DNA of 37,371 bases from Anaerolineae bacterium. Lineage in GTDB: Bacteria; Chloroflexota; Anaerolineae; JAAYZQ01. This document shows, in pieces, positions 1 to 33,300 of the stretch. Position 1 is the first letter of the stretch. Every line of letters begins with the position of its first letter. The stretch is from assembly GCA_041559855.1 (NCBI GenBank), contig JBFFCR010000003.1, positions 1-37,371 of the forward strand. Reading direction: 5' to 3'. Under the pieces are notes generated by a model. The model was not told where the DNA came from. It did no database searches and saw nothing but the letters and a program-made list of their open reading frames with translations. Made by a program: the position numbers and the translations under genes.

Positions 1-118
1 GGCCGAGGACCGCGAGTTCGACCGTCGCTTCCGCCGCGAGGCCAAAGCCCTGGCCCGGCTGGCCCAGGCCCGTGAGACGCACGGACAGCACGAGGAGATA
101 GGATGGTACCACACATGA
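1..118 (+). pseudogene. Truncated Ser/Thr kinase N-lobe fragment, running off the window start
   Basis: Frame from base 2 reads AEDREFDRRFRREAKALARLAQ, matching [22 protein letters not shown] of the downstream kinases. It then diverges and stops at TGA 116-118. Not in the ORF track. Confidence 0.7.
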
Positions 119-1368
119 GAAAACGCACAACGCATCAATCACAGATGGAGCCGCGAGCAGCCCGGCGGCGGGATACAGGCCGTGCCCCCAGGTGGCGAGC
201 AGCTGCACAGCCTGCCCTGCTGGGCGTGCTGTTTCTGTTCGTGGCGCTGCTGCTGAGTGGTTGCAACGGCGACGTGCCCTATGAGGCGCGCCGCCTGCTC
301 TACGAGCTGGAGTCGCTGCTCGATGAGCTCGAACCGCTAGTGGAGGCCGCGCGCTGGGCCTTTGCCATTGCCGGCCTGGCACTGCTGGTCGCCGGCTACA
401 AGATCTACCGTTTCGTGATCGCGCTGCCAGGCTTTGTGATCGGCGCGCTACTGGGCGCTGGGCTGGGATACGCTGGCGCCGACGAGAACTGGCTGATGGC
501 CATCCTAGGGTTGATCCTTGGCGGCATGGCAGGGGCGGCGCTGGCACTGCTGCTCCACGACCTGGCCGTGTTCCTCCTCGGCGCCCTGATCGGCGGCGCC
601 CTCGCGGCGCTGGTCTTTGCCGGACTGGGCGACTCGGGGCCGCCGCTGCTGCCGGTGCTCATCGGCGCGATTATAGGCGGCGCGGGCCTGCTGGCCCTGT
701 CGCACCTGTGGATCGTGGTGCTGTCGTCCTTTGTCGGCGCAGTGATGTTCGGCTTTGGCGTCGATGCCGACCCGGGCTGGATGCTGATCTTTTTCCTGGG
801 TGGCATCGCGGTGCAGTATGGGCTGGCGCGGGCGATCGGCGACAGGATCCCGAGACCGGGGGCCAGGGCGGAGCCAGCAGCGGGACCAGCAGCGCCTGTT
901 CCCAGGGCGCCTGTCCCGCCGCCCGCAGCTCCCAGCCCTGACATCACAGCGCCCATATCTACGGCTCCGCCACCGGGCATAGCGCCCAGGCAAGGCATCA
1001 CCGCGCCCATATCTGCAGCGCCGCCGCCGGCACAGGGGGTCCAGGTGCCCTCCGCAGCTCCTCAGGCTGCCAGCGCGCCAGCGGCCACGCTGGTCAGCAC
1101 CGGTCCGGGTGGCGAGATCTACCAGGTCCGGGATGGCAGCCTGGTGGGCCGGGGTGAAGGTTGTGAAATCTGGCTGCGCGACCGGACCGTCTCGCGCAGG
1201 CACGCCCGCTTTCGCTATGCCCAGGGGATCTGGTACGTGCAGGATGAGGGGAGCACGGCCGGCACCATGGTGAACGGCGTGTATGTGACGGCCACGCGCC
1301 TCCGTGCGGGTGACCGGATCCAGTTGGGCGATTCGATCTTTACCTTCCAGACCGGAGCCAGCATATGA
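103..1368 (+). CDS. Multi-pass membrane protein (DUF4203-like Gly-rich TM bundle) with Pro-rich linker and C-terminal FHA domain (FHA1)
   Basis: GAGGAG RBS at 92-97 and several GxxxG hydrophobic helices. FHA motifs [19 protein letters not shown]. The stop overlaps the K1 start (ATGA, 1365-1368). Confidence 0.85.
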
Positions 1369-31400: not shown

Positions 31401-31428
31401 GCAAACCGAGGAGAAGGAGAGAACCCCT

Positions 31429-33300
31429 ATGCAACCCGACAACGGATCCACAACCCGCCTGGCTGCCCGCCGCCGGATCGTCGTGGGCATCGGCATCGTC
31501 CTGGCCCTGTTGATTGTCGCCTGGGCGGCCTACGTCCTGATCAGCAACCTGCTCAGCGGGCCGCAACCGGCGCCCACGGAGGTCGCGGCAGAGACGACCG
31601 GTCCGCCCGCGGCGGTTCCCGCAAGCGACAGTCCTCTCCCTACCTCCTCAGAGTCGCTGCCCCCCTCCCCAACCCCCGAGCTCGGCACGAGCAACGTCTA
31701 CATCGAGTACATCCTCGATGCCTCGGGGAGCATGAACGAAACCCTGCCGGACGGCACGCTCAAGCTCGAGGTAGCCAAGAACCTGCTCACCGACCACCTG
31801 GGGGCCTTCCATCCCGAGACCAACATCGGGCTGCGGGCGTACGGCCACCGGCTGCCCTACCAGCAGACCGAGGAGAGCTGCCGCGACATCGAGCTGATTG
31901 CTCCCGTGGAGAAGGGGCAGTTGGAGACGATCGTCACCTGGCTGCGGGGGTTCGCCGCCCAGGGGATGACGCCGCTGGCGGAATCGATACGGCAGGCGAT
32001 GGCGGATTTCGTGTTTGAGCCGGGGCGCATCAACTCGATCGTGATGCTGAGCGACGGCATCGAGACCTGCGAGGGCGACCCCTGTGGTTTGGTGGAGGAA
32101 CTGAAGGCGTCGGGCATCAACTTTACCATCCACGTCATCGGCCTGGACGTGGACAGGGCGACGCGGGAGCAGTTGCGCTGCATCGCGGAAGCCGGGGGCG
32201 GCACGTACTACGACGTCGAGACCGAACAGGACCTGACGGAGGCCCTGGACGACATCCAGGAGACGGTCACGGAGGAGGAGGTGATCGTGCCTCCCGGTGC
32301 GAACGCACCGATTGTGGAAGGCTATCCCCTGATCGAGGACTTTGACTCAGATCTTGGTTTCACTTCAACAGATCCAGATGTGTACATACGGGATGGTAGG
32401 GTGAACTGGAGCTTGGTCCTCTCCGAGGATCAACAATATGTCTATCGGAGCATTCCTCGACTCAGGGGAGATGCACGCCTTACAGTCGTGGCCCAGGTCG
32501 ATTCGCATTCTGGGAATTGCTATGTCAGGGTGGGCATTGGGTCAGGCCTGGACAGCCAGAAACAGGTCGCGCTTAGGTTCGGCTATCGGGGAGGGATTCC
32601 TCCTGGCTACCGGGTAAACGCGGTCGGTGTGGTGCTCAGCGAGTCTTCAGAGACGAATGCGCTTCTGCTAGAGCCTGGTAGGCTCTACACTGCAACATTG
32701 ATCATTGCGGACAGCGTTTCGCTGCATGTGGACGGGCTGGGCACCCTGGCGGGCACACCGTCGTATACAGGAGCATATGACACGCTGTTCATTGGCAGTC
32801 CTGGCGGCGCTGCACCGGACCCTGGTAGGTGCTCCGGCTATATAGAGCGGGTGATCATCGAACCGCTGCCCACCTCGGCGGCGACGCCTGTGCTGCCAAC
32901 CTCAACCTGGACGTCCACCCCTCCGCCGACCACACCACCGACAGCTACGCCCAGCCCCAGCCCCGCCGTACCGACACCGGGACCACGGGACATGCATTTC
33001 GTTGTGGAGATAGTCGAACCACCTTCACCGCCTGAGGATCAGATGGGTATCGCGTGGGCGATATGGCAACCCCATATCGTGGAATATCTCGTGCCAAGAC
33101 TCGAGGTTTGTGATGGACAGCCCTATACTCGTGACCCACAAGTGATCTACTGGGGACCAAATCAGGACAACGTCGTAACCGATTTGGAGATCGGTCAGAG
33201 GGTCGAAATCTACGGTGAGTGCTTCTTTGACATGGGCACTACTCCCGCCGTAGGAATACCATCACAGCCACCCTACTTCCTGCGAGTATACCAGCCGTGA
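31429..33300 (+). CDS. V3: N-terminally anchored vWA protein with variable C-terminal domains of unknown function
   Basis: Start set at ATG 31429 by identity with the V1/V2 leader. Near-identical vWA, then unique lower-GC sequence after about 32300. Confidence 0.87.
   Translation: MQPDNGSTTRLAARRRIVVGIGIVLALLIVAWAAYVLISNLLSGPQPAPTEVAAETTGPPAAVPASDSPLPTSSESLPPSPTPELGTSNVYIEYILDASGSMNETLPDGTLKLEVAKNLLTDHLGAFHPETNIGLRAYGHRLPYQQTEESCRDIELIAPVEKGQLETIVTWLRGFAAQGMTPLAESIRQAMADFVFEPGRINSIVMLSDGIETCEGDPCGLVEELKASGINFTIHVIGLDVDRATREQLRCIAEAGGGTYYDVETEQDLTEALDDIQETVTEEEVIVPPGANAPIVEGYPLIEDFDSDLGFTSTDPDVYIRDGRVNWSLVLSEDQQYVYRSIPRLRGDARLTVVAQVDSHSGNCYVRVGIGSGLDSQKQVALRFGYRGGIPPGYRVNAVGVVLSESSETNALLLEPGRLYTATLIIADSVSLHVDGLGTLAGTPSYTGAYDTLFIGSPGGAAPDPGRCSGYIERVIIEPLPTSAATPVLPTSTWTSTPPPTTPPTATPSPSPAVPTPGPRDMHFVVEIVEPPSPPEDQMGIAWAIWQPHIVEYLVPRLEVCDGQPYTRDPQVIYWGPNQDNVVTDLEIGQRVEIYGECFFDMGTTPAVGIPSQPPYFLRVYQP

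Follow-up and report, generated by a model that had tools for sequence, protein, structure and literature searches.

Myxobacteria and Planctomycetota carry species-specific clades of kinases with variable C-terminal periplasmic domains (WD40, TPR and others), and some of these copies lie next to one another, which has been ascribed to tandem duplication and/or recombination (PMC11032199, including Perez et al. 2008 as cited there; in the available part of that text). Architectures joining a kinase to vWA together with FHA, to SH3b or to WD have long been described (PMC1262709, in the part available). We analysed a 37,371-nucleotide stretch of DNA (the window), which is a complete contig (JBFFCR010000003.1; C3 below) of a metagenome bin of an Anaerolineae bacterium (GCA_041559855.1). 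According to Pfam, positions 1-33300 hold seven Hanks Ser/Thr kinases (K1-K7), five FHA membrane proteins (F3 among them reads as soluble), a GH3 glycoside hydrolase, three genes combining a transmembrane (TM) helix, a vWA domain and a tip (V1-V3), and four relics. Like the myxobacterial and planctomycete expansions, the locus combines a cytoplasmic Pkinase domain, a membrane helix and a variable periplasmic C-terminus in a species-specific clade. It differs from them in that the evidence comes from one locus (a contrast in synonymous rate between the kinase-anchor part, or chassis, and the outer part, or tip; a mosaic gene; relics of a displaced tip and of kinases), in that one tip type also sits on a non-kinase TM-vWA chassis, and in that the host belongs to another phylum and has a small genome (4.1 Mb, 43 kinase matches).

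We read the locus as a family of single-pass receptor Ser/Thr kinases that expanded in tandem within one lineage by duplication, gene conversion and sensor replacement, accompanied by membrane FHA proteins and extracytoplasmic vWA proteins in a marine Anaerolineae-like genome where such genes abound, and we put the probability of this reading at about two in three. The kinase-anchor unit would have been duplicated in tandem, repeated recombination among the copies (gene conversion) would have kept the kinase part alike, and the outer domain would have been replaced at or near the linker. The tips may have been drawn from a genome-wide pool that also serves other kinases, lipoproteins and TM-vWA genes. 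All genes from 103 to 33300 lie on the + strand, with short intergenic gaps or overlaps, and the features are as follows.

1-70, +: relic, kinase N-lobe fragment in frame 2 (about kinase residues 48-70), with a stop before F0
103-1368, +: F0, multi-pass TM protein (TM7S3/TM198-like, five strong hydrophobic helices), FHA at the C-terminus; stop codon overlapping the start of K1
1365-3581, +: K1, Hanks kinase, LPPWAW-TM, Pro/Thr repeat linker, PD40 beta-propeller tip; mosaic chassis (5' part K6-like, middle K2-like)
3654-3980, +: relic, final third of an FGE-sulfatase domain (profile positions 178-255 of 255), resembling the K6 FGE; its open frame runs to the K2 start
3974-6118, +: K2, kinase-TM-Pro/Thr linker-FGE tip; the longest open reading frame (ORF) runs from 3896, and the shared start is the ATG at 3974
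6208-9609, +: F1, N-terminal signal or anchor, outer domain of ~950 aa without a Pfam family, TM, cytoplasmic FHA
9626-11512, +: K3, kinase-IPPWGW-TM, four 18-aa repeats, SH3_3 tip
11607-13625, +: K4, kinase-IPPWGW-TM-linker-FGE tip
13601-15619, +: GH3 glycoside hydrolase, NagZ-like, with an N-terminal hydrophobic leader ending in Cys (from the translation)
15720-18761, +: K5, kinase-LPPWAW-TM-linker, about 14 WD40 repeats
18800-20821, +: K6, kinase-LPPWAW-TM-linker-FGE tip
20966-21757, +: F2, three TM helices, Cys-rich ribbon-like motif, C-terminal FHA
21758-23740, +: VF, leader, vWA (DxSxS present), two Big_7 Ig domains, TM, cytoplasmic FHA
23743-24336, +: F3, soluble, N-terminal Cys-rich ribbon-like motif, C-terminal FHA
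24402-26216, +: K7, diverged kinase, TM, Pro/Thr linker, vWA tip
26254-28515, +: V1, short cytoplasmic tail, N-in TM, linker, vWA, 468-aa tip
~28706-28831, +: relic, one PD40-like blade between V1 and V2
28891-30780, +: V2, TM-vWA chassis as in V1, Pro/Thr linker, FGE tip
30915-31404, +: relic, K6-like kinase stub (N-terminal piece 30915-31202, juxtamembrane remnant 31340-31404)
31426-33300, +: V3, TM-vWA chassis as in V1, concanavalin-A-like sandwich, Pro/Thr linker, small C-terminal domain

An earlier note on this DNA, made from its letters alone, had described K1-K6 as sharing a near-identical kinase domain. A shared, young kinase is indeed present, but near-identity overstates it: identity among the K1-K6 domains is 68-84% when 300 aa are compared and 72-88% for 270 codons, and K7 stands at 41-46% and 44-48% from them, respectively. 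All seven matched Pkinase (PF00069) at 157-188 bits against a cut-off of 31.7, as Hanks-type Ser/Thr kinases, and the stub at 30915 scored 44.7 bits over profile positions 2-84 only. The kinase catalytic motifs (the VAxK lysine, HRD and DFG) are kept in K1-K7 in our alignment, with HCD in place of HRD in K7; K1-K6 read VA(V/I) and DFGIAK, and K7 reads VALKI, HCDVKPAN and DFGIAR. The kinases look active and would lie in the cytoplasm, with a flexible linker between the membrane helix and the outer domain. The (L/I)PPW(A/G)W-TM anchor named by the note occurs in 6 out of 6 of K1-K6 and is absent from K7, and it stands directly before the only strong hydrophobic helix of each kinase. In a crude hydropathy scan, every K protein gave a single Kyte-Doolittle peak of at least 1.8, at residues ~330-382.

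Within the genome, identity to K1 was 74-87% for K2-K6, 49% for K7 and 45% for the best other kinase. The likeness of K1-K6 is not due to chance, since every member matches K1 at 74% or more and the genome's 35 other kinase matches reach 49% at best. In a tree of the 37 kinase matches, K1-K6 formed a clade with a support of 99 in the SH-like approximate likelihood-ratio test (SH-aLRT), with K7 as its sister, also at 99, and within the genome this clade was found on this contig alone.

Beyond the helix, the proteins part into unrelated tips. The note had placed them all behind a Pro/Thr linker, which does not apply to K3, whose linker is a four-fold, 18-residue, V/E-rich repeat (10757-10972; four tandem units, with a 59-nt exact repeat at 54-nt spacing). 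Its list of tips (PD40, FGE, two SH3-like domains, FGE, 14 WD40 repeats and FGE) was right as to families, with Pfam assigning PD40 to K1, FGE-sulfatase to K2, K4 and K6, SH3_3 to K3 and WD40 to K5; only the SH3 count fell, to the one SH3_3 match in K3. The WD40 region of K5 comprises 13 Pfam stretches with a 126-nt period. The vWA tip proposed for K7 is borne out by a weak VWA_3 match and by 40% identity to the V-chassis vWA. Judging from the Pro/Thr linkers and the kinds of domain, the K tips would lie outside the cell. In the outer linkers of K1 (2529-2725) and K2 (5144-5382) we observed a common 42-nt (14-residue) Pro/Thr/Asp repeat unit, so the homology of these two genes does not stop at the membrane helix but reaches to where the tips begin.

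Chassis and tips differ in age. Synonymous divergence (dS) among the K1-K6 kinase domains was 0.39-0.84, whereas the FGE tips of K2, K4, K6 and V2 share 43-56% of their amino acids with a dS of 1.57-5.09 (saturated); the nonsynonymous values (dN) were 0.08-0.2 for kinase domains versus 0.39-0.58 for FGE tips. The earlier note had called for separate trees of kinases and tips, and these proved incongruent. In the FGE tree, the K6 tip paired with that of V2 (support 97/96), and grouping the FGE tips of K2, K4 and K6 as one clade was rejected (approximately unbiased [AU] test, p 0.00675), counter to plain duplication. In a kinase tree that included relatives from metagenomes, K1 and K2 (97/90), K3 and K4 (100/100), and K5 and K6 (99/96) were sisters despite their differing tips, and five kinases of another contig clustered together (88/82); such sisterhood among neighbours would be expected under gene conversion, or concerted evolution, within arrays. 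Tips also match those of distant kinases of the same genome: the K5 WD40 tip shares 64% identity with that of a kinase on contig C138 and the K1 PD40 tip 57% with that of a kinase on contig C148, with kinase domains at 43% and 39% identity, respectively. Together with the pairing of the K6 and V2 FGE tips, these matches show tips common to several chassis and chassis common to several tips. Tips and chassis thus have different histories, which argues that recombination, not plain duplication, built these genes.

K1 is itself a mosaic gene. Over the first 225 nt it shares 85-93% identity with K6, and K2 is the nearest match for the remainder. In a tree of the 5' 240 nt, K1 grouped with the stub and K6 (77/86) and its grouping with K2 was rejected (p 0.036); in a tree of columns 300-800, it grouped with K2 (92/92) and its grouping with K6 was rejected (p 0.0002). 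The FGE relic follows directly after the K1 stop (Pfam E 3.9e-12) and is 46% identical to the end of the K6 FGE tip over 91 aa (E 8e-20), compared with 37% for K2 and 36% for V2. Given this relic directly 3' of the PD40 tip and the K6-like 5' part, the simplest reading is that a former K6-like kinase-FGE gene stood at the K1 site and that its tip was replaced by the PD40 module.

The relic pieces of chassis and tips that the note had seen interspersed among the genes number four. The fragment at 1-70 is 66-80% identical to the corresponding part of the other eight kinase copies, namely K1-K7 plus the stub. The stub is 95% identical to K6 over 96 residues (30915-31202) and 94% identical over 306 nt, including 14 nt upstream of the start, and it shares a 134-nt exact match with K1. 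An internal deletion removed its kinase core and left a 65-nt juxtamembrane remnant (31340-31404), and it is truncated where the V3 unit begins, with the V3 ribosome-binding site.

The second, vWA chassis that the note had seen in V1-V3, built on the same logic, was also found. The three genes share a block of ~900 nt that runs from ~40 nt upstream of the start codon to just past the vWA, after which come unrelated tips. The block is 90-100% identical in 60-nt windows, and all three pairs drop to random at one same place; amino acid identity of the chassis is 95-98%, with a dS of 0.14-0.17. The sole helix is preceded by four K/R residues in V1-V3, the DxSxS motif is kept in the vWA domains of VF, K7 and V1-V3, and five cysteines are common to the vWA domains of V1-V3 and K7. 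The V vWA is predicted to lie outside the cell, on the strength of the N-in anchor, the Pro/Thr linker and the five conserved cysteines. The 16-residue cytoplasmic tails of V1-V3 (26254-26301, 28891-28938 and 31426-31473) are nearly alike, each with one to three Thr/Ser residues just before the Arg run, and these residues could be targets of the kinases.

Two of the V tips resist assignment to a family. For the 468-aa V1 tip, we found neither an Atlas match nor a homolog, and a single-sequence model reached a predicted local distance difference test (pLDDT) score of 34, which is unusable. The V3 tip gave weak Atlas leads only (0.85-0.88) and has three homologs, on other protein frames. A model of its residues 1-211 built from four sequences (pLDDT 74) took the form of a concanavalin-A-like sandwich, whose best PDB matches in a fold search were alginate lyases, legume lectins and galectins (E 2e-7 and up, TM-score ~0.5). 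This is a lead, not proof, that the V3 tip is a lectin-like sandwich.

The FGE tips appear to be non-catalytic versions of the FGE/C-type-lectin fold. In K6, the one tip that we aligned to human FGE, no cysteine occurs in the segment opposite the 'YSYRYRC' stretch (of a mutant chain), which we take to be the active-site segment with the cysteine pair Cys336 and Cys341; the K6 tip thus lacks the paired active-site cysteines by which an active formylglycine-generating enzyme is recognised. In translations, K4 and V2 have no cysteine between GGSW and GFRC, and K2 has two. For 5 of the 18 genomic FGE matches we read the upstream frames of FGE domains outside the array; all five lie behind a leader, and three have a hydrophobic stretch ending in Cys and a short linker, which is lipoprotein-like.

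Other contigs of this genome repeat the pattern: C222 (three genes in a row), C165 (two), C148, C476 and C555 carry a second young clade of kinases. Among the six kinases of this clade that we compared, kinase domains are 67-89% identical and tails 20-42%, and the tips comprise FGE, a Bmp/PnrA-type solute-binding domain, PD40, SH3_3 with PD40, and two without an assigned family. The chassis-tip pattern therefore characterises the kinome rather than a single dedicated locus.

Related sequences in other organisms gave a similar picture at greater distance. Among 22 other genomes of the family, the K chassis had a best match of 51%, and the V chassis was matched in one, over 78 aa. Queries with F1, the K chassis, the V chassis, the glycyl-radical enzyme encoded downstream and GH3 returned domain-level matches only, and no orthologous locus was found in these 22 genomes. 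A same-genus genome (77% complete) gave matches at 37-43% identity and no close ortholog of any tested gene. When one genome per GTDB species was searched, the best K match was 47%, and matches lay mostly in Anaerolineae/Anaerolineales and Acidimicrobiales bins; 22 of 91 loci held two kinases and none held more, with the top pair at most 55% identical, these 91 loci having been chosen by likeness to K rather than for arrays, so that they are no census. Metagenome contigs came closer. They hold kinases at 58-80% identity that fall inside the K clade (13 rows, 100/99), with FGE, WD40, WD40 with PD40, Peptidase_M14 or tips without an assigned family. One 5 kb contig has three such kinases in a row; FHA, vWA-FHA or Amidase_3-vWA-FHA genes stand immediately upstream of kinases; and N-terminal kinase stubs of 99 and 109 residues are present. 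On one contig (L135, 886-3000), we observed a membrane protein that combines an N-acetylmuramoyl-L-alanine amidase, a vWA and a C-terminal FHA, immediately upstream of a K-clade kinase.

The earlier note had stated that Hanks kinases signal through pThr-binding FHA domains, and FHA genes are directly adjacent to kinases both here and in related contigs. The FHA domains (PF00498) scored 67.1 bits in F0, 72.8 in F1, 61.7 in F2, 44.5 in VF and 64.6 in F3 (cut-off 20.7), and their best NCBIfam matches were FhaB/FipA, all under cut-off. F1 and VF have four and six K/R residues, respectively, after the last helix in the hydropathy scan. An arrangement with tips and vWA outside and FHA inside fits the positive residues of V1-V3, F1 and VF, as far as a hydropathy argument goes. 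Under the reading that we favour, a ligand would bind the tip, the kinase would be activated, and phospho-threonines would be read by the FHA membrane proteins encoded alongside; the phospho-threonines of this next step would be carried by the kinases or by the FHA proteins themselves. That such a step exists is suggested by the regular association of K kinases with membrane FHA genes in several organisms. The kinases may all feed one shared phospho-output, as the note had supposed. SH3b, lectin folds, propellers, the NagZ-like GH3, and the amidase and M14 peptidase domains in relatives hint at cell-wall or glycan ligands.

Several features of the FHA genes and GH3 stand apart from this argument. 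F2 (20966-21757) and F3 (23743-24336) share, before the FHA, a short Cys-x-x-His ... Cys-Pro-x-Cys ribbon-like motif that Pfam does not name. F1 had no homolog among 40 relatives; the idea that it is a unique protein was dropped because a large protein library contains full-length homologs at 59, 49, 44 and 40% identity (114 proteins at E at most 1e-30). GH3 scored 197 bits with a NagZ-like model whose cut-off is 207 (NCBIfam). VF is a diverged paralog of a vWA-FHA gene conserved in the family. In related genomes that gene belongs to an island comprising an FHA-kinase-FHA gene, an F2-like gene, the vWA-FHA gene, more FHA genes, a triple-FHA ABC-2 exporter and several kinases. The nearest copy of the island in this genome is contig C170, and F2-VF-F3 is a diverged paralog of it, with VF 30-35% identical to all island copies. 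Inside the conserved island (L104, 11837-15064, - strand; also L101 and L106), three N-terminal FHA domains are fused to the ABC-2 type exporter, and this genome also has triple-FHA ORFs next to kinases, one of 1099 aa on contig C140 and one of 1014 aa on contig C141.

Three further described systems pair kinases with FHA proteins. PknB with FhaA/FhaB, of Actinobacteria and Firmicutes, resembles the array in its single-pass Hanks kinase, its extracellular ligand-binding domain and the FHA proteins encoded nearby. The array differs in having many paralogs, not one, no PASTA, and no PP2C, RodA or PBP genes alongside. Indeed, Pfam found no PASTA domain in the window ORFs, and the PASTA kinase model NF033483 (NCBIfam) scored 334.1 bits with K1 and 296.7 with K7, against a cut-off of 450, over the kinase part only. 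With the PpkA-Fha1-PppA threonine phosphorylation pathway of the Pseudomonas aeruginosa H1 type VI secretion system (PMC1262709, in the part available), the parallel is K7, a kinase-TM-outer vWA protein like PpkA, with the small FHA proteins F2 and F3 directly upstream; here, however, the contig has no type VI secretion genes and no PP2C, and K7 is one of seven kinases. Mycobacterium tuberculosis has an FHA-regulated ABC exporter, Rv1747, with the kinase PknF. Similar to it are the triple-FHA ABC-2 exporter that accompanies kinases and vWA-FHA in the island of relatives, and the triple-FHA ORFs of C140 and C141; this contig has no ABC exporter.

Some points weigh against the reading that we favour. 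Gene conversion of the chassis and replacement of tips are not cleanly separable, and direct signs of replacement occur only at K1 (the FGE relic) and at the V3 junction. The groups subjected to AU tests (FGE and the K1 mosaic) were picked after earlier trees and identity plots, so the p values are optimistic. In a 64% G+C genome with codon bias, dS is rough, and saturated values mean just 'large'. Topology comes from a crude hydropathy scan and the positive-inside rule. No PP2C (PP2C_2) match was found on C3, although the genome has five. Finally, the bin is fragmented (608 contigs, 86% complete, 6% contamination), and the assignment of each V tip to its upstream gene depends on the original assembly.

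A rival reading, built on the earlier note, is a dedicated, cassette-like locus for diversifying receptors, akin to the tip exchange of polymorphic toxins, that would serve surface or non-self surveillance (of epibionts or phage, for example) with one FHA-read output. We consider this unlikely. The note's claim of a repertoire diversified by C-terminal swapping is upheld in part, by the differing histories of tips and chassis and by the displaced FGE relic, but not as to a dedicated exchange mechanism. The remnants after K1 (FGE, behind a PD40 tip) and after V1 (PD40), the common sharp ends of the V block, and the FGE tip carried by two different chassis, the two being sisters, would all suit such a locus. 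Against it, we found no recombinase, integrase, inverted repeats or common junction motif at the chassis-tip borders, which lie in or beside low-complexity linkers or directly after the vWA, and no series of silent tip cassettes. The second kinase family shows the same pattern over other contigs, and a K-clade dS of 0.4-0.8 means slow rather than rapid turnover. Nor is the note's word 'polymorphic' supported: no strain-level tip variants were seen in four sequencing runs, and no orthologous locus turned up in 22 genomes of the family.

Polymorphic toxin loci (Rhs, CDI) have a constant N-terminal part and displaced C-terminal tips. The array resembles them in its constant N-terminal and exchangeable C-terminal parts and in the remnant of an old tip downstream (the K1 FGE relic). 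It differs in that the tips are binding folds and in that there are no toxin families, no small downstream immunity-like genes, no demarcating motif and no string of orphan tips; among the Pfam matches of the window ORFs, we found no secretion-system, transglutaminase or toxin family. The likeness drawn by the note is therefore not supported, for lack of a junction motif, a recombinase or orphan cassettes, and gene conversion of the chassis explains much of what is seen.

A related, bolder proposal is a germline-encoded receptor repertoire of a filamentous bacterium, in which a recombination-prone kinase or TM-vWA chassis repeatedly captures outer domains and leaves displaced tips and kinase stubs behind. 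The sensors so obtained would monitor the cell surface for wall damage, phage, epibionts or foreign cells and signal by way of the paired FHA membrane proteins. We regard it as unlikely, with little direct support. Precedent for threat sensing of either kind comes from the Esr epibiont pathway of Actinomycetes, which uses surface beta-propeller sensors with a diversified sensor part, vWA, Ser/Thr kinases and an FHA output, has variants that combine FHA with zinc-finger-like parts, and, in the available part of the preprint, is described as essentially confined to Actinomycetes and as requiring MoxR, a transglutaminase, a separate Ig-repeat sensor, a phosphatase and a pseudophosphatase-FHA protein (PMC13622651, preprint 2026). 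Only the kinase, vWA, FHA and propeller themes are common to Esr and the window; its MoxR, transglutaminase, Ig-repeat sensor, phosphatase and pseudophosphatase-FHA protein are absent from the contig, where the sensors are instead fused to kinases. FGE-fold domains have been proposed as sensors in conflict systems of multicellular bacteria (PMC7159879, PMC10907252; in the parts available). There, a vWA directly followed by FGS (the FGE fold) has been linked to multicellular bacteria including Chloroflexi, and these vWA proteins act with a MoxR ATPase and, in cyanobacteria, with a diversity-generating retroelement (DGR) (Kaur et al. 2020, PMC7159879, in the available text). V2 has that same order, vWA directly followed by the FGE fold. 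By contrast with the vWA-FGS and VMAP systems, no MoxR occurs on the contig (no AAA_3 match on C3, five in the genome) and no reverse transcriptase in the bin, and the V vWA is predicted to be extracellular. The absence of MoxR and PP2C from the contig also speaks against a dedicated surveillance locus. PADLOC is not informative on defence: K1, K3 and K7 matched many PD-T4-6 models (best E 1.3e-97) as well as mad6, PglW and MkoA kinase models, but the matches fall mainly on the kinase part and look generic.

We judge an assembly artefact, whether dispersed paralogs joined at kinase or vWA repeats or a foreign contig binned by mistake, to be very unlikely. What invites it is the state of the bin (4.1 Mb, 608 contigs, 85.7% complete, 6.1% contamination), the 134-nt exact repeat linking K1 and the stub, the start of the contig inside a kinase-like fragment, and the same-genus genome without a close ortholog. 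All other exact repeats, however, are at most 77 nt, the GC and tetranucleotide make-up of C3 is typical of the bin (rank 55 among 118 contigs of at least 10 kb), and related metagenome contigs independently show a like tandem arrangement. We placed Logan contigs of four runs from two studies (marine and sediment metagenomes by label) on 18800-37371 at 97% likeness, and the runs contain 83-86% of the sampled words of 26000-33400; the run with the highest share may be the source sample. The pieces listed (32 of 337) include 19612-26247, 26967-28884, 29652-30962, 31086-31430 (one run) and 32175-33708; they cross each unique junction of the window's second half, so that every V tip is joined to the gene that follows it and the stub to the start of V3. 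Among the pieces listed, none spans the V cores (~26247-26967, 28884-29652 and 31430-32175) or 30962-31086, and this speaks neither for nor against the assembly. A contig of low depth (5-7), seen in three runs, connects 31102 in the stub with 24609 in K7 via 19 other letters; most likely it represents a further kinase from the community, or a variant.

It is also very improbable that whole genes were simply duplicated in tandem long ago and then diverged, with tips evolving faster and no exchange. Such a history would account for neighbouring genes being mutually closest kinases, for the co-directional genes and, through stronger constraint on kinase domains, for the contrast in dN with the FGE tips. 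Yet PD40, WD40, SH3, FGE and vWA are non-homologous folds that divergence cannot reach from one another, within the same genes the FGE part is several-fold more diverged at synonymous sites than the kinase part, the FGE tips are not monophyletic, K1 is a mosaic, and V1-V3 are 95-98% identical and then unalignable.

That the FGE tips are DGR targets, varied at the C-terminus by mutagenic retrohoming, is barely credible: FGE/C-type-lectin folds are usual DGR targets, with kinase-linked ones reported in cyanobacteria (PMC7517822 and PMC7159879, in the parts available), and, like FGE folds of the binding type, the K6 tip has no catalytic cysteines, but the bin (86% complete) has no RVT_1 match and the 3' ends of the four FGE genes have no template-like near-repeat, the best others being 68-79% over 47-129 nt and one of 32 nt at 91%.

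The array holds a large share of some families of this genome: 8 of 43 Pkinase, 5 of 18 FGE and 5 of 32 FHA matches fall on C3. Downstream of it, G+C falls from 0.64 to 0.56, and a PGA_cap gene and a glycyl-radical enzyme follow, both on the - strand (Pfam). Exactly at the end of the G+C-rich array, ~560 nt (33660-34216) are 81% identical to the end of contig C329. Depth there is ~3 times that of the flanks in all four runs, and neither copy contains a clean ORF, an Rfam family or a tRNA; Rfam and tRNA scans of the window found nothing.

The earlier note did not recognise the array as a described system, and here it went too far, given the precedents (PMC11032199, PMC1262709 and PMC13622651, in the parts available). 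Kinase expansion by tandem duplication or recombination, variable sensors, kinase-vWA with FHA, and threat sensing by surface sensor, kinase and FHA are already known. Our literature search found no paper on such arrays in Chloroflexota, and the supplementary tables of PMC13622651, PMC7159879 and PMC11032199 may list cases. What this locus adds is the locus-level evidence of how the family was built, the tip type shared by kinase and TM-vWA chassis, the relics and the Anaerolineae-like lineage.

Accounts of 'eukaryote-like' kinase expansions in bacteria usually give numbers of genes and lists of domains. At this single locus the process itself can be seen, with a young, homogenised kinase-anchor unit, older pooled sensors, a recombinant gene and remnants of what was replaced, and the locus ties members of a kinase family to membrane FHA partners across several uncultured relatives. 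As it stands, the finding refines a known theme and opens no new one. Were the surveillance repertoire to prove true, the array would be to bacteria what receptor-kinase arrays are to plants, and Chloroflexota would have in it an analogue of the actinobacterial Esr pathway. If the sensors read cell-wall or foreign-surface ligands, these genes would be natural chimeras for studying how outer domains are coupled to one kinase.

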